Positions 1 to 10,001 of a DNA stretch of 32,000 nt are shown here, piece by piece. Each line of letters opens with the position of its first letter. Within the stretch, counting starts at the first letter, position 1. Source of the stretch: Geotalea daltonii FRC-32 (lineage in GTDB: Bacteria > Desulfobacterota > Desulfuromonadia > Geobacterales > Geobacteraceae); the NCBI RefSeq assembly GCF_000022265.1, contig NC_011979.1:1140001-1172000 (forward strand). The letters run 5' to 3'. The position numbers were made by a program, and so were the translations under genes. Under the pieces are notes generated by a model that was not told the DNA's origin, made no database searches, and was given only the letters and a program-made list of their open reading frames with translations.

Positions 1-1000
1 AAAGGAGATTTCGGCAACCTTGAAATGACAGTCCCTCGGGACCGCCAGTCATCCTTCGAGCCGATCATCGTCCCCAAAGGAGAGAGCCGCTTTACCGGCT
101 TCGATGACAAGATCATCTCCATGTATGCCCGTGGCATGACCACGCGGGATATTCAGGGGCACCTGGAGGAAATCTACGGTGTAGAAGTCTCCCCAACCCT
201 GGTATCACAGGTCACCCAAGCCGTTACCGAAGAAATTACCCTATGGCAGAATCGCCCGCTTGATGACGTGTACCCGATCATGTACCTCGATGCCGTGCGG
301 GTTAAAGTCAGGCACGAAGGACGGGTGATCAACAAAGCTGTTTACCTGGCCATTGCCGTTACCTTCACCGGGGTCAAAGAAAGTCCTCGGCATGTGGACT
401 GCCGAAACCGAGGGTGCCAAGTTCTGGCTCCAGGTAGTTACGGAACTGAAGAACCTAGGCGTCAAGGACATCTTCATCGCCTGCGTCGATGGACTCAAAG
501 GCTTCCCTGAGGCCATCGAAGCGGTATTTCCTAAAACCCAGGTTCAGCTCTGCATCGTCCACATGGTGCGCCACAGCCTGAATTACGTGTCCTGGAAGCA
601 GCGCAAGGAAGTTGCCGACGATCTGAAGCAGATCTACCAGGCAGCAACCCTGCAGCAGGCCGAAGCGAATCTGGAAGCATTCGAAACCAAGTGGAGTGCC
701 ACCCATCCGACCATCGGCAAATCGTGGTGCAGGAACTGGGAGCGGATCATTCCCTTCTTCTCCTATCCGCCTGAAATCCGGAAAGCCATTTATACAACCA
801 ACGCCATAGAATCGCTGAACATGTCGCTGCGGAAGGTCACCAAGAACCGGGCATCATTCCCAAACGACGAAGCTATGCTGAAACTGCTCTACCTAGCCCT
901 GAAGAACATCGAGAAAAAGTGGACTATGCCGATCAGAGACTGGAAATCGGCACTCAACCAGTTCACCATTATGTTTGAAGAAAGAATGCCTGCTCTTTAA
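1..1000 (+). pseudogene. IS256-family (Mutator-type) transposase, 5' truncated by the window edge and interrupted by a +1 frameshift near nt 382
   Basis: Frame 1 from nt 1 reads GDFGNLEMTVPRDRQSSFEPIIVPKGESRFTGFDDKIISMYARGMTTRDIQGHLEEIYG...LAIAVTFTGVKE. Frame 2 (ORF 353-1000) continues VLGMWTAETEGAKFWLQVVTELKNLGVKDIFIACVDGLKGFPEAI...TTNAIESLN. The two halves form one protein only if one base in the run aaagaaag (376-383) is skipped. Confidence 0.8.
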
Positions 1001-1040
1001 ACCGAAAGCCATTTACACAAAATTATTTACAGGACCCCCC
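1..1040 (+). mobile_element. IS256-family insertion sequence, right-hand part only; the left part runs off the window. The right terminus is estimated about 40 bp past the transposase stop.
   Basis: It contains the Mutator/IS256-type transposase reading frames. Base composition switches abruptly to AT-rich unrelated sequence after ...gccatttacacaaaattatttacaggaccccc (about 1010-1040). The exact terminal inverted repeat cannot be confirmed without the left end. Confidence 0.75.
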
Positions 1041-1343
1041 AGCGGGTTTCACTTTTTTCCTAAAAACAACTTTGTCGATTTAATAATTCCTTTCCTGGTT
1101 GTGTGGGCTGCCTCCTTTGTTTATACCGGCATAATAGGCGGGATACTTTGGATGCCTTTACATAAATTTAAATCAGACAACATTCTAACATACATCCTTA
1201 TTGCCATTGTATTCACATCTTTATTGTCACTTGGCACGAATCATGGTGTATCGCTATTGGGGATAGGCATGAGTTCAACAAATGCAATAATGATAAGATT
1301 GCTAGAAATTAAGATATTCAAACTCAGTAATAAAGCCACCTGA
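975..1343 (+). pseudogene. Possible 3' remnant of a small membrane-protein gene cut by the IS256 insertion
   Basis: The first ~20 codons of the ORF are IS-end sequence. The AT-rich remainder encodes 2-3 hydrophobic helices (LIIPFLVVWAASFVYTGIIGGILW, ILTYILIAIVFTSLLSLG). There is no convincing start or RBS after the IS end. Confidence 0.25.
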
Positions 1344-1450
1344 CAGCCTGGCTCCGATATCGGAAAGTGAGCCTTTTTCATCAGCGTCTAAGCCCCCATC
1401 AGGAGCTTTGCACTGGCACAGGACTCAAAATATTAGAAACAGAGGTGCTC

Positions 1451-2131
1451 ATGGTGATTTTTAATATGAGAGCAATAATAGTCGTGGCTGCATTGCTTCA
1501 AGCAGTGCCAGTATATGCCGATACTCCGTGCCAAGCTCTTCAACGACAACTAGATTACTATTTACATGACATTATTGGTTGTCACTATACTGCGGAGTAT
1601 AGTGATAGAAATATAAATATCTATAAAGAATGTGATCCACCACCAACCGTCAAAACTATCACTTATTCAGCCGGTGGAGTCACTCGCACTGTAACTGATA
1701 CAGCACAATGCTGTAGTAAATCTCCTTGTTATGAACGAGATAGGTATTATGAGGAATTTACCACCATTTATTACAACACTCGGGTTGAATACGCATATTG
1801 TGATAACACTTCAACAGTTGAAGAATTCGGGTATGGAGCTTTTCCTGAATATCCATTCGTGTCTTCAGCAATATGTGGCATAACATATCCTATTAGACCA
1901 CCCACTGTTTTAACTTATGGTTGTCCAAGTCCCCAAAAAACCTTAGAGGCAACCTTAGATATCCCACCCGAATGTAAGTGTTTAGATCCGAATGATCCTT
2001 GTTGCAACAGCACGGATGAATGTTGTGGCAAAGGGCCTTGCTGTTATGACCCTGCCTGCTGCGGAGATGTATGCTGTCAGGGTAAAGGCGTAAATGGCGC
2101 GATAGACAGTATTTTCGGCCAGGCGAAGTAA
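1451..2131 (+). CDS. Secreted cysteine-rich protein of unknown function
   Basis: An in-frame ATG at 1451 is preceded by gaggtg. A signal-peptide-like N-terminus (MVIFNMRAIIVVAALLQAVPVYA/DT) is present. About 21 Cys occur in the mature part, including five CC doublets in the tail CCNSTDECCGKGPCCYDPACCGDVCC. The gene lies in AT-rich sequence. Confidence 0.55.
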   Translation: MVIFNMRAIIVVAALLQAVPVYADTPCQALQRQLDYYLHDIIGCHYTAEYSDRNINIYKECDPPPTVKTITYSAGGVTRTVTDTAQCCSKSPCYERDRYYEEFTTIYYNTRVEYAYCDNTSTVEEFGYGAFPEYPFVSSAICGITYPIRPPTVLTYGCPSPQKTLEATLDIPPECKCLDPNDPCCNSTDECCGKGPCCYDPACCGDVCCQGKGVNGAIDSIFGQAK

Positions 2132-2228
2132 AGGGTCAGGCCGTCAACACTGTACACACTTCTTTCCTTTTGCTAAGGTGATGTAAAATCCCGGCAGACA
2201 GAGGAGACACATGTGGCCGACCATCAGA

Positions 2229-2794
2229 AACTGGGAAGCTACCCGTGGAGTGGCCATGTAGTATTACTCGGTAAGCGGGCCATGGAAGGTCATGAGACGG
2301 ACGAGGTACTGACACGTTTTGGAAATACCAGGGCACGCGCAGTTCGTGGCTATTGGCAGTTCGTCGCCGATGGAATTACCACAGGACATCGCCAGGATCT
2401 GGTCGGGGGCGGACTTAAGCGCAGCCAGCCCGATTGCATGGAGATCAAAGAAATAGCCGCCTTTGATGAGCGAATCCTCGGCAGTGGCGGGTTTGTGGAA
2501 AAGTTGACCCAGGGGGCCAGCGTGGTGGAGAAGAATAAACCACGTCTTGCCTTGGTTGAATTGCTAGACAGAGTCTGTGCCGTGACCGGAGTGGTTGCAG
2601 ACCGAATGCAGTGTTCCGGCAAAGAGCGCACCGTAGCACGGGCAAAAGCTATCTTCTGCTACTTGGCAGTACGTGAGTATGGCTATACGGGCACAGAGGC
2701 CGGGAAGGTCGTAGGGATCGGCTCGGCAGGCGCGTCTATAGCGGCCAGACGGGGAGCGGAGTTATTGAAGAGTTACCCGGAGCTGGGGATATAA
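2229..2794 (+). pseudogene. 5'-truncated copy of the RAYT-like transposase at 6819-7787; only the C-terminal DnaA-HTH-like half is present
   Basis: Nt 2229-2850 align without gaps to 7222-7843 (offset 4993) with only a handful of mismatches by eye. The HUH and Tyr motifs of the full copy are absent. Confidence 0.85.
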
Positions 2795-2850
2795 AATTGA
2801 AGGGGAGGCAGTTAGTTGATTAGCTAACAACGTCCCTCCCAAGGACCCCT
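2229..2850 (+). repeat. About 620-bp near-identical duplicate of 7222-7843 (3' half of the family-2 RAYT-like element, including its right inverted repeat)
   Basis: Direct comparison of the two stretches. Both end with ...gcagttagttgattagctaacaacgtccctcccaaggacc. Confidence 0.9.
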
Positions 2851-2868
2851 GAAAACCACAAGTTTAAT

Positions 2869-3093
2869 GTGATTGATAAAGGGTGGATCGAAGCCAATGA
2901 GTTAAGTGTAGGTGACAAAATAATCACAAGAAATGGAAACGCATATGTTAAATCAATTATGTTTATAAAAACAGAAATACCTGTTCACGTATTTAATATT
3001 GAGGTAGAAAATAATGATAACTATCAAATTCAAGAAATGGGCGTAGTTGTAGTAGATAGATGGAATGCAGAAGCATTTTCATGTAAACCATAG
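2869..3093 (+). pseudogene. Orphan C-terminal Hint-domain (PT-HINT-like) fragment of a polymorphic toxin
   Basis: IDKGWIEANELSVGDKIITRNGNAYVKSI...VHVFNIEVENNDNYQI...GVVVV resembles the C-terminal half of Hint/intein-like domains found before toxin tips in Rhs-type proteins. It starts at a GTG directly after the truncated family-2 element, and only about 20 aa follow the Hint block. Confidence 0.5.
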
Positions 3094-3134
3094 CTTTAAT
3101 GGTCAATACTCATATACTAATAAGGAAGAATTAA

Positions 3135-3920
3135 ATGTATGACTGGTTCTATGAACAACTTAAATCAATAAAATACAAAAATTTTCATATTGTCGAACCA
3201 ATAGATCAAAAAACGATAGAAAATTTGAAAGTAAGACTTGGCGGGCTTCCAAAGACATATGCGGATTTTCTACAATCTTTTGGGAAAGCCAAGCTATATC
3301 ATGAACAGCACTACTATATCGTTGGCGTTTATCCATTGTATCCTGAATCAATAGATGAGAGCGGAGAGACGTTCTACTGCTTTGGCCATTATGATGCTGC
3401 ATCCGCTGGTTTTAAAGCAGCAGACATAAATGGGGGAAATGAAGCCGCAGTATTTGAAATGAACTCTTCTGGCAATTTAACAAGAGTAGCAAATGACTTT
3501 GCTAGTTGGTTTTTTGATAGATGCACTTTAGCGAGGAAGCGGTACTCCAAAAAAGAATGGGAAAAGATTTTAAATGAGCCCAAACCGTTCAACAATCGTG
3601 AGGTTGCCGTCGCTGAAGCCAGAAAGCTGTTTCAATGGCAGTTACTTGAGCGGACGCCGCAAGGCACCTTTCGGTTCCGCATATACAATAACTCCAAAAC
3701 AGTTCTGCCATTTTTGACAGTAGGAATTCGACATAATGAGAATAAGTTCGAAGGGGGAATATGGATCCCGGTAAGGCATGTTACTCCTGGACAGGTTAGA
3801 GATGTTGAAGCGAAGCCTTATCCTCACATTCCTATTGAGGAGCAAATTCCGTTTTCTATGCCTGATCCCACTCCTGAAGATAGAGCGATGTACTGGGAGT
3901 TCAGGAAAGCAGATCGTTAA
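3135..3920 (+). CDS. SMI1/KNR4 (SUKH-1) family immunity-type protein with an extra C-terminal domain
   Basis: The N-terminal pattern IDQKTIENLKVRLGGLPKTYADFLQSFGKAKLY is the classic SUKH/SMI1-KNR4 signature. An aaggaag RBS precedes the ATG. The gene lies immediately downstream of the toxin fragment. Confidence 0.7.
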   Translation: MYDWFYEQLKSIKYKNFHIVEPIDQKTIENLKVRLGGLPKTYADFLQSFGKAKLYHEQHYYIVGVYPLYPESIDESGETFYCFGHYDAASAGFKAADINGGNEAAVFEMNSSGNLTRVANDFASWFFDRCTLARKRYSKKEWEKILNEPKPFNNREVAVAEARKLFQWQLLERTPQGTFRFRIYNNSKTVLPFLTVGIRHNENKFEGGIWIPVRHVTPGQVRDVEAKPYPHIPIEEQIPFSMPDPTPEDRAMYWEFRKADR

Positions 3921-4035
3921 GCGCTGGTGAACAGGGATGTGAGAAGTATCAGCTCAGCAGTGAGACGCCTTCGGAGAGGATGCAGGAGACACCGAAGTTG
4001 GCGGAGAGGATGTCGTCACTTAAAGCTCTTCTTGA

Positions 4036-4130
4036 GGCCAACCGTAGGTGTCAGGGCCAACCGTAGGTGTCAGGCTTGACATTCGGACATTTGGCCAACC
4101 GTAGGTGTCAGGCTTGACATTCGGACATTT
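4036..4130 (+). repeat. REP-like family-1 repeats: 2.5 tandem copies of the 38-bp unit ggccaaccGTAGgtgtcaggcttgacattcggacattt
   Basis: A half unit lies at 4036-4054 and full units at 4055-4092 and 4093-4130. Each carries GTAG (4044, 4063, 4101) directly 5' of a small hairpin TGTCA-ggct-TGACA. Confidence 0.9.
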
Positions 4131-4147
4131 TGATATATTGTTTCCCC

Positions 4148-5098
4148 ATGGCCCGTAAACCTCGCATACATTACCCCGGCGCTGTCTACCACGTTATTCT
4201 GCGTGGCAATGCCGGCGAACCACTCTTTTTCAAGGATCGTGACCGATTTCGTTTCTATCTGCACATGCAGGAAGTAATAGAACGATTTCGTTGCCGGATT
4301 CACGGATTTTGCTGTATGACTAACCATGTCCATCTGATTTTGCAGGTGGAAGAGATTCCCCTCTCGCGTATCATGCAGAGTCTGTCGCTTAAATACACCA
4401 GATGGATCAATTACACCCGCCGGCGCACCGGGCATCTCTTCCAGGGACGCTACAAGGCAATCATGTTGGATGCTGACGCTTACCTGCTCGAACTCGTCCG
4501 TTATGTCCATCTCAACCCCGTGCGGGCCGGAATGACAGAATGCCCTGAAGGCTACCGCTGGAGCGGTCATAATGCGTATCTCGGCAAGGAGATGCTCCCG
4601 TGGCTGACGACCGAATGGGTACTTGCCCTGTTCTCGGGGGAAATCAACGCGGCCATCCAGCATTATCGGCAGTTTCTTTTAGATGGCATTGCCGAGGGAA
4701 GAAGAAATGAATTCCATAGTGGCACATGCGAGGGACGGATTCTTGGTGATGATTGTTTCGCAGATAAAGCGCTGACAAGGGCGAACCAGCATTGGCGGCG
4801 TGAATGGCAACTTGACGAACTCATCGATGCCATCTGCCGTCGTTATGGAATAGCAGCGAAAGAACTCAAAGCGCCTGGAAAGAAGAGGCCATTCAGCGAG
4901 GCAAGAGCAGTTGCTGCAGTTCTTGTCCAGGAATCACCGCATCTCACCCTGACAGAACTAGGCAAGGTGCTGCAACGTGATATCACTGCCCTTGGCAAGG
5001 CAGCGCAGCGCTTGATCCGGCAGGCTGATGCTCGGCTGATAAAACTCCTTGAGGAGTTACGGGGCGAGATGGAAGAAATGTCCGAAAGTCAAGCCTGA
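4148..5098 (+). CDS. RAYT-like HUH (Y1, IS200-like) transposase fused to a DnaA-domain-IV-like HTH (paralog 1)
   Basis: The sequence MARKPRIHYPGAVYHVILRGN leads into HUH motif NHVHLIL, GHLFQGRYK and the Tyr motif RYVHLNP. The C-terminal ARAVAAVLVQESPHLTLTELGKVLQRDITALGKAAQRL resembles DnaA C-terminal domains. The last 7 codons and the stop lie inside the right inverted repeat. Confidence 0.8.
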   Translation: MARKPRIHYPGAVYHVILRGNAGEPLFFKDRDRFRFYLHMQEVIERFRCRIHGFCCMTNHVHLILQVEEIPLSRIMQSLSLKYTRWINYTRRRTGHLFQGRYKAIMLDADAYLLELVRYVHLNPVRAGMTECPEGYRWSGHNAYLGKEMLPWLTTEWVLALFSGEINAAIQHYRQFLLDGIAEGRRNEFHSGTCEGRILGDDCFADKALTRANQHWRREWQLDELIDAICRRYGIAAKELKAPGKKRPFSEARAVAAVLVQESPHLTLTELGKVLQRDITALGKAAQRLIRQADARLIKLLEELRGEMEEMSESQA

Positions 5099-5129
5099 CA
5101 CCCCATTCCGCCCTGACACCCCATTCCGC
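5076..5129 (-). repeat. Family-1 REP-like repeat in inverted orientation (right end of the RAYT-1 unit), plus two copies of an 18-bp direct repeat
   Basis: aaatgtccgaaagtcaagcctgacac (5076-5101) is the reverse complement of gtgtcaggcttgacattcggacattt (4105-4130) with one mismatch. cctgacaccccattccgc then occurs twice (5094-5111 and 5112-5129). Confidence 0.9.
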
Positions 5130-5147
5130 CCCAAATAAACCGGCCCC

Positions 5148-5870
5148 CGCACCCACGTGCAGGACGTCACCACCTTCACTTACGACGCCAACGGCAACAT
5201 GCTGACAAAGACCGAAGCTTTAATCGGCACCACCCGTTATGACAACTACGACGCCCTGGGCAACCCAGGCACCATTACCGATCCAAACGGCAATGCCACC
5301 ACCTACACCTATGACACCGCAGGCAGGGCACTATTCGTCAAAGCCCCCGGAGACATAAACCCCACCGAATACACCTATACCACCGGCGGGTGTGGCAGCT
5401 GCGGCGGATCAACCAACCGCATCGCCTCCATCATCCAGCCCGAAGGAAACCGTATCGACTATACCTATGACACCAACGGCAAACTGACCAAGATTGCCGA
5501 TAGCCAGAATAACAGCATCAACTACAGCTACGACAGCGAAGGGAACAAACTGAAAGAAGAGATCAAAGATCCGTCAGGCATCCTGCAAAAGACCATCAGC
5601 TACCAATACGACGTCATCAACCGCCTCAAGCAGATCAAAAACCCCGATGCCACCTACACCGAATTCGGCTACGACGCCCTCGGCAACCGAACCAGCAGCA
5701 AAGACCCCAAACAAAACCTGACCACCAGCCAGTACGACGCCCTGAGCCGCCTCACCGCCACCATCCAGCCCGGCAATGTCACCACCGGCTTCACTTACGA
5801 TACAAATAACAACCTGACCACCGTAACCGACGCCAACAGCAACAGCACCACCTACAAATACGACGATCTG
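5148..5870 (+). pseudogene. Rhs/YD-repeat protein fragment, copy 1; no N-terminus, Rhs core end or toxin tip
   Basis: YD repeats are present (FTYDANGNM, YDALGN, YTYDTAGR, YTYDTNGKL, YSYDSEGNKL, FGYDALGN, YKYDDL). There is no real start codon. The frame runs into a stop supplied by the following REP-like repeat (..WGQA*). Confidence 0.85.
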
Positions 5871-5882
5871 GGCAGAAGGAGC

Positions 5883-5913
5883 CTATGGGGTCAGGCTTGA
5901 CTTTCGGATATTT
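5883..5913 (+). repeat. Solo family-1 REP-like repeat, inverted relative to the copy at 5076-5103
   Basis: The reverse complement of ggggtcaggcttgactttcggatattt matches aaatgtccgaaagtcaagcctgacacccc with one substitution and a 2-nt indel. Confidence 0.85.
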
Positions 5914-5922
5914 ACGGTGATG

Positions 5923-6017
5923 GAAAATCTTAAGGGGACGTTCCTGCTTTATGAAAATCTTAAGGGGACGTTCCGAAAATCTTAAGGGGGCGTCCCTGCT
6001 TTATTGCATTAGCCAAC
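5923..6017 (+). repeat. Three direct copies of a 22-bp family-2 REP-like unit gaaaatcttaaggggacgttcc, two of them extended by tgctttat(tgcattagccaac)
   Basis: The units lie at 5923-5944, 5953-5974 and 5975-5996. The core aaggggacgtt..tgct..at resembles the left inverted repeat of the family-2 element (ctagggggacgttgcttgctaat, 6755-6778). Confidence 0.8.
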
Positions 6018-6022
6018 ATTTC

Positions 6023-6745
6023 CGCACCGACGTGCAGGATGTCACCACCTTCACCTACGACGCCAATGGCAACATGCTAACAAAAACTGAGCCTCTCATT
6101 GGCACCACCACCTACGACAATTACGATGCCCTGGGCAATCCCGGCACCATCACCGATGCCAACGGCAATGCCACCATCTATACCTATGATGCTGCCGGTC
6201 GGGTGCTGACCGTCAAGGCCCCTGGGGATACCAACTATACCGAATATATCTACACCGCCAGTGGCTGCGGCAGTTGCGGCGGGGCCACTACCCGCATCGG
6301 CACCATCATCCAGCCCGAAGGCAATCGCATCGACTATACCTATGACACCAACGGCAAACTCCAAAAAATCACCGACAGCCAGAATAACAGCATCAACTAC
6401 AGCTACGACAGCGAAGGGAACAAGCTGAAAGAAGAGATCAAAGACCCGTCAGGCATCCTGCAAAAGACCATCAGCTACCAATACGACGTCATCAACCGCC
6501 TCAAGCAGATCAAAAACCCCGATGCCACCTACACCGAATTCGGCTACGACGCCCTCGGCAACCGAACCAGCAGCAAAAACCCCAAACAAAACCTGACCAC
6601 CAGCCAGTACGACGCCCTGAGCCGCCTCACCGCCACCATCCAGCCCGGCAATGTCACCACCGGCTTCACTTACGATACAAATAACAACCTGACCACCGTA
6701 ACCGACGCCAACAGCAACAGCACCACCTACAAATACGACGATCTG
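6023..6745 (+). pseudogene. Rhs/YD-repeat protein fragment, copy 2; a duplicate of 5148-5870 at offset 875 with no indels
   Basis: It has the same reading frame and the same first (gcacc.acgtgcagga) and last (tacaaatacgacgatctg) homologous bases as copy 1. The 3' ~370 bp are almost identical and the 5' ~350 bp are clearly diverged. Confidence 0.85.
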
Positions 6746-6754
6746 AACGGGCGG

Positions 6755-6800
6755 CTAGGGGGACGTTGCTTGCTAATTAACTATTGTCACTGAGCAATAG
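6755..6800 (+). repeat. Left inverted repeat of the family-2 RAYT-like element, plus a hairpin
   Basis: ctagggggacgttgcttgctaattaactattg pairs imperfectly (about 22 of 27 by eye) with the reverse complement of 7802-7832. It is followed by the hairpin ctattg-tcactgag-caatag (6781-6800). Confidence 0.65.
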
Positions 6801-6818
6801 TTATGTTGGCTTGCGCTC

Positions 6819-7787
6819 ATGCCACGCCAACCACGTCTTGACATACCCGACGTCCTCCATCACATCATTGTTCGCGGGATCGAACGCCGTGACATTTTCG
6901 CTGAAGATGCTGACAAGGAACGTTTTGTGGCAAGCCTTTCTGCCCTGCTCACGAAAAGCGCCACCAAGTGTTATGCTTGGGCGCTCATGTCAAACCATTT
7001 ACATCTGCTTCTCATGCCGACCAGAGTTTCTCTTGCTGAAACCATGCGCCGTCTGCTGACCGATTATGCCGTTTACTTTAATCGCAAATATCAGCGCTGC
7101 GGCCATCTGTTCCAGAACCGCTACAAGTCCATACTCTGCGAGGAGGATCCTTACTTTCTCGAACTTGTGCGCTATATCCATTTGAACCCGCTACGAGCGG
7201 GCATGGTTTCCGATATGAATGAACTGGGAAGCTACCCGTGGAGTGGCCATGCAGTATTACTCGGTAAGCGGGCCATGGAAGGTCAGGAGACGGACGAGGT
7301 ACTGACACGTTTTGGAAATACCAGGGCACGCGCAGTTCGTGGCTATTGGCAGTTCGTCGCCGATGGAATTACCACAGGACATCGCCAGGATCTGGTCGGG
7401 GGCGGACTTAAGCGCAGCCAGCCCGATTGCATGGAGATCAAAGAAATAGCCGCCTTTGATGAGCGAATCCTTGGCAGTGGCGGGTTTGTGGAAAAGTTGA
7501 CCCAGGGGGCCAGCGTGGTGGAGAAGAATAAACCACGTCTTGCCTTGGTTGAATTGCTAGACAGAGTCTGTGCCGTGACCGGAGTGGTTGCAGACCGAAT
7601 GCAGTGTCCCGGCAAAGAGCGCGCCGTAGCACGGGCAAAAGCTATCTTCTGCTACTTGGCAGTACGTGAGTATGGCTATACGGGCACAGAGGCCGGGAAG
7701 GTCGTAGGGATCGGCTCGGCAGGCGCGTCTATAGCGGCCAGACGGGGAGCGGAGTTATTGAAGAGTTACCCGGAGCTGGGGATATAA
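6819..7787 (+). CDS. RAYT-like HUH (Y1, IS200-like) transposase fused to a DnaA-domain-IV-like HTH (paralog 2)
   Basis: The sequence MPRQPRLDIPDVLHHIIVRGIERRDIF leads into HUH motif NHLHLLL, GHLFQNRYK and the Tyr motif RYIHLNP. The C-terminal ARAKAIFCYLAVREYGYTGTEAGKVVGIGSAGASIAARRG is DnaA-C-like. Confidence 0.8.
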   Translation: MPRQPRLDIPDVLHHIIVRGIERRDIFAEDADKERFVASLSALLTKSATKCYAWALMSNHLHLLLMPTRVSLAETMRRLLTDYAVYFNRKYQRCGHLFQNRYKSILCEEDPYFLELVRYIHLNPLRAGMVSDMNELGSYPWSGHAVLLGKRAMEGQETDEVLTRFGNTRARAVRGYWQFVADGITTGHRQDLVGGGLKRSQPDCMEIKEIAAFDERILGSGGFVEKLTQGASVVEKNKPRLALVELLDRVCAVTGVVADRMQCPGKERAVARAKAIFCYLAVREYGYTGTEAGKVVGIGSAGASIAARRGAELLKSYPELGI

Positions 7788-7801
7788 AATTGAAGGGGAG
7801 G

Positions 7802-7832
7802 CAGTTAGTTGATTAGCTAACAACGTCCCTCC
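7802..7832 (-). repeat. Right inverted repeat of the family-2 RAYT-like element
   Basis: cagttagttgattagctaacaacgtccctcc has the reverse complement ggagggacgttgttagctaatcaactaactg, which matches the left repeat at 6757-6786 imperfectly. Confidence 0.65.
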
Positions 7833-7984
7833 CAAGGACCCTCCCAAGGACCCTCCCAAGGACCAACAACGTCCCTCCCAAGGACCCTCCCAAGGACCTC
7901 CCTCCCAAGGACCCTCCCAAGGACCCTCCCAAGGACCCTCCCAAGGACCCTCCCAAGGACCCTCCCAAGGACCCTCCCAAGGAC
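7828..7984 (+). repeat. Tandem array of the 12-bp unit cctcccaaggac: 12 units in blocks of 3+2+7, interrupted by caacaacgtc and ctc
   Basis: Units were counted by hand. The first unit is the outer end of the right inverted repeat. The paralogous copy at 2838-2850 carries a single unit. Confidence 0.95.
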
Positions 7985-8032
7985 CCCAATCAGCCACTTT
8001 CCCAAATCGGTATCAATGATTTCTCGGGATAT

Positions 8033-8190
8033 GTGTCCCCACGTTGTTAAAAATGGAATGCGGTGATCCGAATGTGAAATTAGGCTTGGCGGCTCCTCGG
8101 AAAGGCCCAGTTAGGCTTACGTCGCCGCGCCTTGCCGGGAACCGAAATCCCTCGAAATTCTGGCAGAGAACTAACCTTAGAGGGCACTAG
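8033..8190 (+). repeat. Diverged copy of MITE-like family A (see 14868-15033 and 28307-28472)
   Basis: The right half cgtcgccgcgccttgccgggaaccgaaatccctcgaaattctggcagagaactaaccttagagggcactag is roughly 80 percent identical by eye to 28408-28472. The left half is more diverged, so the left boundary is approximate. Confidence 0.6.
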
Positions 8191-8717
8191 AAGTCAACTT
8201 CGACCTGCAGAACATCCAGGAATTTGTTGAAGGCTGTAAAGAGTTCCATGACGCCAAGTGCTTCAATTATCTCGGCATCGATAGCGCCTGTTTGCTTGAG
8301 CGCAGCAAACTCTTCATCGGGAACTCGCAATGGAGTGGTGTTTGCTTTCCGGGCAAAGGATATCAGTGCCCGTTCCTTGGTAGTGAAATTCGCCTGCTCC
8401 AGGTCTTCTTCAATTGATCTTATCTCTTCCTCAGACACTCCAATTGCCCGCAACGCTCCCGTGTGAGCCGCGACACAGTAAGCACAGCCATTATCTCGTG
8501 AAACCAGAACGGCAATGGCCTGTTTGGTCTTCTGGCTTAACGTTCCCTCTCCCATTACCGCCTTTACCTTGTTCCAGTTGGCCTTGAGTAACGGCAGGTG
8601 ATTGGCATAGGTGAGAAAGAGGTTCGGGACTTTCCCGAATGCACCTTCTATCTCGGCGAAAACTTCTTTTACTTCTTTTGTGGCTGTCGTTACGTCATAG
8701 GTTGCTATCCTGGCCAT
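8187..8717 (-). CDS. Carboxymuconolactone decarboxylase / AhpD-like family protein
   Basis: The CxxC active-site context DNGCAYCVAAHTGAL is typical of AhpD-core proteins. The ATG at 8717 (MARIATYD) has ggagg 9 nt upstream. An alternative ATG at 8732 would add 5 aa. Confidence 0.8.
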   Translation of the reverse strand: MARIATYDVTTATKEVKEVFAEIEGAFGKVPNLFLTYANHLPLLKANWNKVKAVMGEGTLSQKTKQAIAVLVSRDNGCAYCVAAHTGALRAIGVSEEEIRSIEEDLEQANFTTKERALISFARKANTTPLRVPDEEFAALKQTGAIDAEIIEALGVMELFTAFNKFLDVLQVEVDF

Positions 8718-8760
8718 TTTCTTGTCCTCCATTTCTGAATAGTGTACCCAGTCTCTCTGT

Positions 8761-8905
8761 TCAAGTTCGCAAATCTAGAGTGATTCGTAATGTCTCAATA
8801 CACTCTTTCATCGGCCGCTCATCCTTTTTGAGCCGGGACATCATGATGCCACCCTCTATAGTTGCGATGATGTGTTTTGCCAAAGCTTCACTACGGCGGA
8901 TGAAG
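8761..8905 (-). pseudogene. Possible C-terminal remnant of a TetR-family regulator
   Basis: The minus-strand frame reads FIRRSEALAKHIIATIEGGIMMSRLKKDERPMKECIETLRITLDLRT*, which resembles the last helices of TetR-type ligand domains. No HTH-encoding part lies upstream. It is adjacent to an AhpD-like gene, a common TetR partner. Confidence 0.3.
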
Positions 8906-8971
8906 GGGGGCAGTATTCGACCCACCCCTTTCTTTTTTGTTGTTGATGCAATATAGTTCCCGATGCCAGCA

Positions 8972-9037
8972 GTCTGTCGGACTTAGGAATGAATCTGCTG
9001 CTATCCTCTTGCTGCGATCCCCTAAGTCACTCCTAGC
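8972..9037 (+). repeat. Internally deleted copy of MITE-like family B (full copy at 9760-9925)
   Basis: agtctgtcggacttag-gaatgaatctgctgc ... gcgatcccctaagtcactcctag shares both termini and the first internal block with the full element. Confidence 0.7.
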
Positions 9038-9055
9038 CGAAAGGAAACCAAGCAT

Positions 9056-9757
9056 ATGAGCCGAACCCTTATTAGTATGATTGAGCAGATGGAGCCGGGA
9101 GTGGTAATCCTCAACGATGATCTGACGGTCTCTTCCGTGAGCAGCATGATTTTCCTGATTTTCGGTCATATCCCTCGCGAGCGGGTCTTTGCTGGAGACC
9201 TCCTGGGCATTCACAGTGAGGAGGCACGCGCCAAGGTAAAGGAGATGTTGCGGCTGGCACGCCAGGCACAGAGGCATATTCCGCTCTCGCTCAAATTTGT
9301 CACCAGTGAAGGCCAGGACCGATACCTGCTGATCAAGCTGATAACTATTGTAGGCCGTGAATCCTCCGACGACAAGACCTGCGCCCTGTTTTACGATATA
9401 ACCCCCTTCACCCTGGCTGAGCGCAAACTTACCAGGGTGCCGGTCACTTCCCGTGGTGAGATCCATCTCCTCAAGCCGGAAGAGATCGTTTACCTCAAGG
9501 CTGACAATATCTATTCCATGATCTGTACCGAATCGGGCGAATACCATAGCGACCTGTCCATCGGCGCCATTGAAAAACGCCTTCCCGGCGAAATGTTTTT
9601 CCGCATTCACCGCAGTTTCCTTGTCAATATCACCAGAATCCGCAAGGTTCATCGCGAGCGCCACGAATGCACTGTGGAAGCCGGAGGAGGCGAGGTGCGC
9701 CTGCCGGTCAGCCGCGACAAGCTGCAAGGTTTTCTGGTGGAAATGGGTCTTAAATAA
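9056..9757 (+). CDS. rcoM: RcoM-type single-component regulator: N-terminal PAS-like sensor plus C-terminal LytTR DNA-binding domain
   Basis: The LytTR signature is IHLLKPEEIVYLKADNIYSMI...FFRIHRSFLVNITRI. The N-terminal ~115 aa are PAS-like. The gene sits immediately upstream of, and in the same direction as, cooS, the arrangement described for RcoM. Confidence 0.75.
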   Translation: MSRTLISMIEQMEPGVVILNDDLTVSSVSSMIFLIFGHIPRERVFAGDLLGIHSEEARAKVKEMLRLARQAQRHIPLSLKFVTSEGQDRYLLIKLITIVGRESSDDKTCALFYDITPFTLAERKLTRVPVTSRGEIHLLKPEEIVYLKADNIYSMICTESGEYHSDLSIGAIEKRLPGEMFFRIHRSFLVNITRIRKVHRERHECTVEAGGGEVRLPVSRDKLQGFLVEMGLK

Positions 9758-9759
9758 CC

Positions 9760-9925
9760 CTAGGAGTCTGTCGGACTTAGAATGAATCGGCTGCGAAAAT
9801 GGCAAATCGGTCCGGATCTCCGTAAATTTTCGACAAATAGTCCACTATTCGCTCTCAAATTTCCAAATATCCGTCCTCGATTTTCCATTCTCTCGCTTCG
9901 ATCCCTAAGTCCGACAGACTCCTAG
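9760..9925. mobile_element. MITE-like element family B, 166 bp, with perfect 21-bp terminal inverted repeats
   Basis: ctaggagtctgtcggacttag (9760-9780) is the exact reverse complement of ctaagtccgacagactcctag (9905-9925). There is no coding capacity. Confidence 0.85.
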
Positions 9926-9933
9926 CCCGTACC

Positions 9934-10001
9934 ATTCACTTCATTTTTCCTACCTTCCACAAGCCCGATACCTCTTCCGCAAGATCCCGCTGTTTCACTT
10001 C
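9934..10001 (+). promoter_or_regulatory. Candidate RcoM (LytTR) operator upstream of cooS: four direct TTC(C)RC repeats spaced about 20 bp apart
   Basis: attcacttc (9934), cttccacaag (9954), cttccgcaag (9974) and tttcacttc (9993) place TTC at 9935, 9955, 9975 and 9994. They lie 54-120 bp upstream of the cooS ATG. A possible -10 tatacc lies at 10014. Confidence 0.4.

Follow-up and report, generated by a model that had tools for sequence, protein, structure and literature searches.

Putative TIRtrons in the Rhs toxin arrays of Geotalea daltonii FRC-32 and a possible 2.92-Mb inversion with Rhs loci at its ends

The window analysed here, a 32,000-nucleotide stretch of the chromosome of Geotalea daltonii FRC-32 (positions 1140001-1172000 of a finished single contig of 4,304,501 bp), contains in its first 8 kb part of an Rhs toxin locus, where a gene for a putative tyrosine transposase lies between imperfect inverted repeats, accompanied by a truncated copy, by a second, related unit and by pieces of rhs genes. 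The gene occupies positions 6819-7787 on the plus strand as an open reading frame (ORF) of 322 amino acids (aa), the product of which matched the Pfam family Y1_Tnp (E=1.3e-12; 48 bits, cut-off 23) and reached 63 bits with the NCBIfam model REP_Tyr_transpos, under the cut-off of 80, with no match to the NCBIfam model transpos_IS200. An earlier note on this DNA, made from the letters alone, had taken it for the second of two RAYT-like paralogs, flanked by inverted repeats of its own, and this description holds, together with the HUH motif (NHLHLLL) and the Tyr motif (RYIHLNP), both present in the product. The DnaA-like helix-turn-helix (HTH) also claimed for it fared less evenly: the direct match of the C-terminus to Bac_DnaA_C was weak and sub-threshold (E=0.014), whereas the protein aligned end to end, HTH region included, with the product of the related gene at 4130-5098 (33% identity, E=2e-57). 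The latter protein, assigned to family 1 (the former to family 2), matched Bac_DnaA_C above the cut-off at its C-terminus (1.3e-8) and Y1_Tnp with E=5.9e-15, and scored 69 bits with REP_Tyr_transpos (cut-off 80) and 18.5 bits with transpos_IS200 (cut-off 55).

Two full copies of family 2 were found in the genome, copy A in the window (6749-7841, plus strand) and copy B on the opposite strand (4079741-4080826, minus); the two lie 2.9 Mb apart and differ at 4 of 1105 aligned nucleotides (nt). The family also includes two fragments, a 3' fragment, T, at window positions 2229-2850, and a 5' fragment, F, at 4070048-4070434. Family 1 is represented by an intact unit in the window (4036-5123, plus strand, or 4030-5110 as delimited in the comparison with the other copy; gene 4130-5098, with Y1_Tnp and Bac_DnaA_C) and by a second copy at 4068980-4070051, which has an internal TAA stop. 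This second copy is nested in a family-2 copy: within 4068980-4070434, family 2 is interrupted at nt 391 and its remaining part is absent, and the 5' stump left there, fragment F, is identical to copy B and not to copy A. All six pieces of both families are confined to two paralogous Rhs loci that make up 1% of the genome, locus A at 1128578-1148189 and, in the opposite orientation, locus B at 4068377-4094524, both following the plan of a giant gene, a Cys-rich gene, rhs, immunity genes and orphans. The genome has three further Y1 genes, all located elsewhere. With identical copies at 4.07-4.08 Mb of the same chromosome, the inverted repeats pointed out in the earlier note are not a product of chance.

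A repeat search placed the family-2 inverted repeats at 6760-6783 and 7806-7829 (24 nt, 88%). The ~27-bp repeats first reported at 6757-6786 and 7802-7832 do exist, but their extent had to be corrected, with the comparison of three left and three right junctions putting the true termini at ~6749 and ~7841. The unit so delimited measures ~1.09 kb and has imperfect terminal inverted repeats (TIRs) of ~36 bp, in copy A at 6749-6783 and 7806-7841. The three right ends share the last nucleotides ...TCCCAAGGACCC(C), and the three left ends the first nucleotides (GGGCGG)CTAGGGGGACG, the flanks being unrelated on both sides, and no target-site duplication was found in the junction alignment. A subterminal 9-bp hairpin is present at the left end of copy A (6778-6803); the folding energies of the element ends were no different from those of shuffled sequences. 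In both families, the outermost 12-19 nt are tandemly duplicated at both ends. The family-2 right unit, TCCCAAGGACCC, is present once in T, three times in B and ~13 times in A, where the expansion of this 12-nt unit occupies 7842-7990 on the plus strand with an extra TIR tip embedded at 7865-7887, and the left unit has two copies at B. The window copy of family 1 has its terminal unit tandemly duplicated at both ends as well, with the TIR GGTGTCAGGCTTGACATTCGGACATTT at 4066-4092 and 4104-4130 on the left and at 5076-5102 on the right, and in this family the left unit GGCCAACCGTAGGTGTCAG has two to four copies and the right unit two. A genome-wide fuzzy search for dispersed copies resembling repetitive extragenic palindromes (REPs) detected none, the six and six repeat sites all lying at elements in the two Rhs loci, and the idea that the repeats are REPs was rejected on the ground that they are not dispersed.

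A RAYT-like gene flanked by TIRs and not by REPs has been named TIRYT, and the whole unit TIRtron, by Di Nocera, De Gregorio and Rocco (2013, PMC3733652), who stated for the majority of TIRYTs that many TIRs share the motif GGGGWSAS. In the classification of Quentin et al. (2018, PMC6006769), TIRYTs form subclass 2.1 of TnpA-Y1, with long proteins, a C-terminal Bac_DnaA_C/HTH and no REPs nearby, the C-terminal extension of subclass 2.1.2 being Bac_DnaA_C, HTH_23 or HTH_28, and TIRYT/TIRtron is the largest RAYT-like Y1 subclass, found in 14.9% of the sampled strains. The units described here resemble them in encoding a RAYT-like Y1/HUH protein (~320 aa) that ends in a Bac_DnaA_C/HTH extension, in having TIRs with a G-rich tip a short, fixed distance from the gene, sometimes in dimers or clusters, and in lacking a dispersed REP family. 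TIRYT within a TIRtron is the more precise name for the RAYT-like paralog with its repeats. They differ from the published TIRtrons in the family-2 tip, GGGGACGT, which departs from GGGGWSAS at two positions (the family-1 tip, GGTGTCAG, has one mismatch, and that of a solo TIR described below, GGGGTCAG, none), in the tandem expansion of the 12-19-nt terminal units at both ends, and in the evidence of recent copying between loci, of nesting and of truncated copies, whereas the published descriptions report neither mobility nor a link with Rhs.

Two other systems come close. With REPtrons, in which a RAYT/TnpA-REP gene is associated with REPs or bacterial interspersed mosaic elements (Nunvar 2010; Bertels and Rainey 2011, PMC3116915; Ton-Hoang 2012), the units share a homologous HUH/Tyr domain and inverted flanking repeats, and in family 1, as in REPs, a small hairpin is immediately preceded on its 5' side by GTAG; unlike REPtrons, however, they have repeats confined to the elements, a gene in several copies and a protein that, with its HTH tail, reaches twice the length, and both scores (63 and 69 bits) stay below the RAYT model cut-off. 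Elements of the IS200/IS605 family (IS608, ISDra2) also have a Y1 HUH fold, no target-site duplication and subterminal hairpins, but they lack terminal inverted repeats, their TnpA has ~130-150 aa and no HTH tail, and they often carry tnpB.

Homologs of the family-2 gene were detected in 72 of the 87 Geobacteraceae genomes, often in several copies and at contig ends. At most of the 21 homolog loci examined, GGGGACG... TIRs flanked the gene at a distance of ~55 bp on the upstream and 25-45 bp on the downstream side, and duplicated termini were seen at some loci of other genomes. Pairs of TIRYTs less than 7 kb apart were present in at least 10 genomes, sometimes with one gene per family (e.g., contigs G027:C47, G036:C1, G032:C12, G033:C1, G079:C7 and G050:C20); such pairs are more frequent than roughly estimated for chance, which points to hopping over short distances or to nesting. 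The plasmid collection gave only distant "transposase" matches, at no more than 39% identity, and an Rfam search of window positions 1-10000 gave no match. Outside the Rhs loci of G. daltonii, four 113-bp units resembling miniature inverted-repeat transposable elements (MITEs) were observed at genome positions 186395-186508, 187460-187573, 2757579-2757692 and 2771935-2772047, bounded by inverted GGGGACGTTGTTTG... termini with the family-2 TIR core, and these may be non-autonomous TIRtron derivatives.

Taken as a whole, the explanation that we favour, with a probability of roughly 70%, is that the gene at 6819-7787 and its inverted repeats form a TIRtron, i.e., a TIRYT gene within imperfect TIRs, and that two TIRtron families repeatedly landed and decayed in the Rhs toxin arrays of this genome. 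The predicted TIRYT belongs to the Y1/HUH tyrosine transposases, within the RAYT lineage, and carries a DnaA-type HTH at its C-terminus; the class itself is already known, if little studied, and the element adds a further example. The precise shared termini, the unrelated flanks, the near-identity of distant copies and the nesting indicate, if indirectly, that TIRtrons behave as discrete units. Movement would involve the cleavage and joining of single strands at the TIR tips by the HUH/Tyr site without target duplication, a mechanism that we presume for this element from what is known of the family. For the Y1 transposases of the IS200/IS605 family, a target duplication is not expected. We know of no movement, target or cellular effect shown to date for a TIRYT or TIRtron.

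The truncated copy T, at 2229-2850 on the plus strand, records one such landing. It retains the 3' 57% of the element, from nt 473 to the end, without the HUH and Tyr motifs, and it is nearly identical to the full copy, as had been noticed earlier, matching 7222-7843 with 5 substitutions in 620 nt; all five are private to T, copies A and B being identical over that stretch. It stops at the same terminal nucleotide as the other copies, and its right TIR (2813-2850) is intact, with one 12-nt terminal unit. An open frame of 193 aa (2213-2794), with AGAGGAG 6 nt before its GTG, was also observed in it; this frame would encode the HTH tail minus the catalytic domain, possibly a transposition inhibitor or a relic.

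Immediately at the element end, at 2851, homology to Rhs-HINT proteins begins. The stretch 2851-3093 (plus strand, GC 31%) corresponds to the last 81 codons of an Rhs-family protein with a PT-HINT end, cut mid-domain by the right end of the element, with 28.4 bits against PT-HINT (cut-off 27.7) over model positions 72-123, or 64-123 of 137 in the whole-genome scan; that scan revealed no other PT-HINT piece in the genome, the N-terminal Hint half included. The Hint fragment had been placed 19 bp beyond the truncated copy: that the two adjoin is correct, but 19 bp is the distance to the first GTG and not to the start of homology. Among the best relatives retrieved by an exhaustive HMMER search, this stretch is the extreme C-terminus, as in protein P0007 (1402 aa; RHS repeats, then two PT-HINT domains), which aligns over residues 1327-1399 with 42% identity and the same VVDRW ending. 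The Hint ORF thus ends at the natural C-terminus of the family, so nothing is missing after it and no toxin domain follows, and the label of toxin has to be dropped. A PT-HINT continuous with an Rhs/YD shell in one protein is not found here; the piece is a remnant, its upstream part having been deleted. Proteins P0007 and P0008 both terminate in a tandem pair of PT-HINT domains, with no toxin domain beyond it, and in their final Hint VVDRW replaces the usual terminal motif.

Next to the Hint piece lies a SUKH-1-like candidate immunity gene (3135-3920, plus strand, 261 aa), which scored 22.7 bits with SMI1_KNR4, under the cut-off of 25.4. A word-indexed search retrieved a single homolog (37% identity), located on a 2-kb metagenome contig directly after an Rhs C-terminal toxin gene, whereas no toxin domain precedes the gene here; the context of the homolog supports an immunity role. 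On the other side of T, a gene for a small Cys-rich protein (1367-2131, plus strand, no Pfam match) is a diverged second copy of the paralog found at genome 1134452-1135153, directly upstream of RhsA, and marks the head of a second, gutted Rhs module. It is followed on the plus strand, at 2195-2228, by a ribosome-binding site (RBS; AGAGGAG), a start codon and ~6 codons, a stretch that is likely to represent the start of a lost rhs gene and the left edge of a deletion, to judge from a weak similarity of 2200-2215 to the RBS/start region of RhsB (17/22 match).

The history that would account for these remains begins with a second module made of the Cys-rich gene, an rhs gene ending in one or more PT-HINT domains and the SUKH-like immunity gene. 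A family-2 TIRtron would have inserted inside the last Hint domain of this module, and a later deletion, from just past the rhs start codon (2228) into element nt 472, would have eliminated the entire Rhs body along with half of the Hint (the first) and half of the transposase gene (the catalytic one), leaving the stump 2229-2850 joined to the last 81 Hint codons. That a Hint-bearing gene of the Rhs type was hit by an insertion is supported by the element end lying inside it, and the history as a whole is supported by the Hint homology, which starts exactly at the element end and runs to the natural C-terminus of Rhs-HINT-HINT proteins, by the lack of any other Hint piece in the genome, by the RBS/start remnant before the truncation point and by the Rhs fragments of the window being copies of RhsA residues 512-755. 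One insertion and one deletion most likely explain the whole of 2195-3093, more simply than the splitting of a single gene considered below. The locus also links TIRtrons to the decay of Rhs toxin modules.

Comparison with related genomes extended the analysis to the chromosome scale. The right edge of Rhs locus A falls at window positions 7991-8189, and the sequence common to the closest relative (G053, 93-98% nt identity) starts at 8190. In G053, contig C4 contains the reverse complement of 4165795..4094525, followed by one 845-bp gene absent here and then by the window from 8190 onward, and contig C20 contains 1098380..1128567, a different 18-kb Rhs island and then the reverse complement of 4068375..4035391. 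The island of G053 is not orthologous at the nucleotide level and has no TIRYTs, and in another relative, G050, positions 4068318 and 1128576 are only 64 bp apart, with no island between them. If the assembly is correct, the segment 1148190-4068376 (2,920,187 bp) is inverted relative to G053 and G050, with the Rhs loci at its ends. The extra gene of G053 is an ORF of ~260 codons on the minus strand (L070:16722-17568, in G053:C4), between glmS and a carboxymuconolactone-decarboxylase-like gene, at a place taken in the present genome by the Rhs loci.

The base composition of the chromosome carries the same signal. With dnaA at position 512, the cumulative GC skew has its minimum at 0 and its maximum at 3.00-3.08 Mb, and a switch at ~3.06 of 4.30 Mb implies replichores of ~3.06 and 1.24 Mb (71:29). 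Mirrored across the segment, the maximum falls at ~2.156-2.157 Mb, compared with 2.152 Mb for half of the chromosome length. Since flipping the 2.92-Mb segment back puts the switch in mid-chromosome, the inversion is either derived and recent or an assembly error. A literature search for an inversion or a skew anomaly in this species found none. The inversion would most simply result from homologous recombination between inverted homologous sequences of the two loci, which share tracts of family 2 (1116 nt, 99.64%), family 1 (1095 nt, 97.4%) and the giant gene (4648 nt, 93%); the 1.1-kb, 99.6%-identical family-2 copies would be the best substrate. Like the large inversions mediated by insertion sequences or rrn operons, the segment is bounded by inverted near-identical repeats and relatives have the other orientation, whereas most fixed inversions are symmetric and this one is strongly asymmetric about the origin-terminus axis.

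A bolder reading, which we hold only tentatively and think doubtful as a whole, is that the TIRtrons are active, prefer to nest in Rhs arrays and in each other, fragment rhs genes, and supplied, in their inverted copies, the substrate (or, in their transposase, the agent) for inverting 68% of the chromosome in a recent event. If this were true, the inversion would have moved the terminus by 0.9 Mb and left the 71:29 replichore imbalance, and it would be the first documented genome-scale consequence of the TIRYT class of transposases. A real inversion would also make available a naturally occurring example of severely unequal replichores in a Geobacter strain that is cultured and genetically tractable, and it would bear out the wider notion of repeat-mediated rearrangement. 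The general part of the earlier proposal, that recombination between repeat copies reshaped the region, is plausible, and the inversion would show it at a much larger scale; a separation of rhs and Hint sequences by such recombination is not supported.

Several observations weigh against the explanations put forward so far. The crossover site cannot be placed, the single-nucleotide polymorphisms among the copies being too few to decide and the contexts of the CPBP-like immunity gene beside copy B providing no informative synteny; recombination might instead have used the family-1 copies or the giant-gene tract of 4.6 kb, and the match of the locus B 5' fragment to copy B and not A speaks mildly against a crossover within family 2. 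Misassembly across the 1.1-kb repeats might also account for the inversion. Neither a transposition event nor an empty site or excision product was seen among the relatives, which lack the whole island. The family-2 protein and its TIR are imperfect matches to the class, with the sub-threshold DnaA_C score and the two departures from GGGGWSAS noted above, and the deletion model leans on the weak RBS/start similarity. Finally, in other Geobacteraceae, Rhs sequences lay within 8 kb on either side of family-2-like genes at 2 of 40 loci, not significantly more than the 0.4-0.8 expected by a rough estimate, so that a general targeting of Rhs by family-2-like genes of Geobacteraceae is not shown.

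We regard it as improbable that the deposited order, and the 2.92-Mb inversion in particular, arose in assembly through a swap of flanks across near-identical inverted repeats, although the endpoints do coincide with such repeats and replichores of 71:29 are uncommon among free-living bacteria. The genome record consists of one finished contig, repeats of 1.1 kb are normally spanned by paired clones or long reads, and the four differences between the family-2 copies and ~2.6% between the family-1 copies help assemblers to separate them. Moreover, the truncated copy and the junctions described sit in unique flanks and are independent of the long-range order. Were the inversion a misassembly nonetheless, the reference genome would need correcting.

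Unlikely, too, is that the units are not mobile, or no longer so, the copies having arisen through segmental duplication and gene conversion between paralogous Rhs loci, with a domesticated, RAYT-like TIRYT. This would fit the confinement of all six pieces to two Rhs loci, the absence of target duplication, the mosaic identity of Rhs fragments (see below), which shows conversion operating here, and the published literature, in which TIRtron transposition has never been shown. However, homology among the copies ends exactly at the termini, with unrelated flanks on both sides, and the element copies are 97.4-99.6% identical as compared with 70-77% for the Rhs genes that surround them in loci A and B. 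A copy of one family lies within a copy of the other, multiple copies and positions at contig ends are seen across Geobacteraceae, and the 113-bp MITE-like derivatives with the same TIR core occupy four other sites, while the lack of target duplication is what IS200/IS605-family Y1 transposases would lead one to expect.

The Rhs pieces of the window bear on the remaining alternative. A short distance upstream of the window is intact RhsA (1354 aa, genome 1135207-1139268), in front of which lie a gene for a giant protein and the Cys-rich protein gene. Fragment 1 (5140-5875, plus strand) is an internal piece of the YD shell, 99% identical to RhsA codons ~512-755 (genome 1136742-1137470), and fragment 2 (6016-6745, plus strand), ~8.5 kb downstream of RhsA, is the same internal segment, residues 512-755, with 89.6% identity overall. 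The identity of fragment 2 is mosaic, ~80% over the first 330 nt and nearly complete over the last 400 nt, which suggests gene conversion. It lacks the first 511 codons, and both its boundaries are common to fragment 1. Fragment 2 does adjoin the left end of copy A, as first described, but the gap of 10 bp given for it needs revision, its homology ending at 6745, 3 nt before the extended terminus. Between the two fragments lie, on the plus strand, a solo left-end TIR of a diverged family-1-like element (5876-5913; TIR at 5887-5913, GGGGTCAG, an exact fit to GGGGWSAS) and three tandem stubs of a family-2-like TIR (GAAAATCTTAAGGGGACGTTCC...; 5923-6004). The two fragments are separate internal copies of the RhsA shell bounded by TIRtron ends, and not the missing front of the Hint gene.

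The earlier note had proposed that one family-2 element split a single rhs-Hint-toxin gene and that recombination between copies then moved the Rhs repeats (6023-6745) and the Hint/immunity end (2869-3920 in the note, 2851-3920 as corrected here) apart, and this is very unlikely, despite the expected polarity (Rhs piece at the left end, Hint piece at the right), the existence of Rhs proteins ending in PT-HINT and a join 6745|2851 that is in frame (one-in-three by chance). The join lacks continuous homology, an outcome that the note itself had named as refuting its proposal: fragment 2, an RhsA copy sharing its boundaries with fragment 1, ends at or before about residue 767 of P0007 and the Hint piece starts at 1327, so that at least 560 residues are lacking, from the remainder of the shell and the core to HINT 1 and half of HINT 2. 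The genome does not contain the N-terminal Hint half, not one of the three left ends of family 2 adjoins Hint sequence, and T, with its five private substitutions, is no recent sister of a full copy. Synteny cannot rescue the single-gene idea, since neither the Hint tip nor the SUKH-like gene occurs in any of the 238 other genomes of the order (239 searched).

In their general organization, with a main rhs gene, displaced fragments, immunity genes, mobile-element copies at fragment junctions and evidence of conversion between main gene and fragments, the loci resemble the Rhs loci of E. coli with their orphan cassettes and insertion sequences (H-rpt/ISAs1). They differ in that the resident elements are Y1 TIRtrons and not DDE elements, and in that the two fragments are internal shell pieces without toxin tips, which therefore cannot act as spare tips. 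Window positions 5953-6136, comprising TIR stubs and the first 115 nt of fragment 2, recur at 4074725-4074908 in locus B with 94% identity, and this copy is fused directly to an Rhs C-terminal orphan; the recurrence of the block identifies RTDVQDVTTFTYD as a recurrent fragment boundary.

Two further repeated or mobile sequences were observed. A 112-nt repeat unrelated to the TIRtrons is found at 1128578-1128692, the left edge of the island, and at window positions 9815-9926; its copies number ~20 here and run to dozens in G053 and G054, and one copy is located exactly where homology to the island-free G050 ends. Finally, window positions 1-1000 carry a transposase gene of the IS256/Mutator family, between the RhsA immunity gene and the second module, in two overlapping frames (1-510 and 353-1000), which is probably a frameshifted or programmed-frameshift copy.

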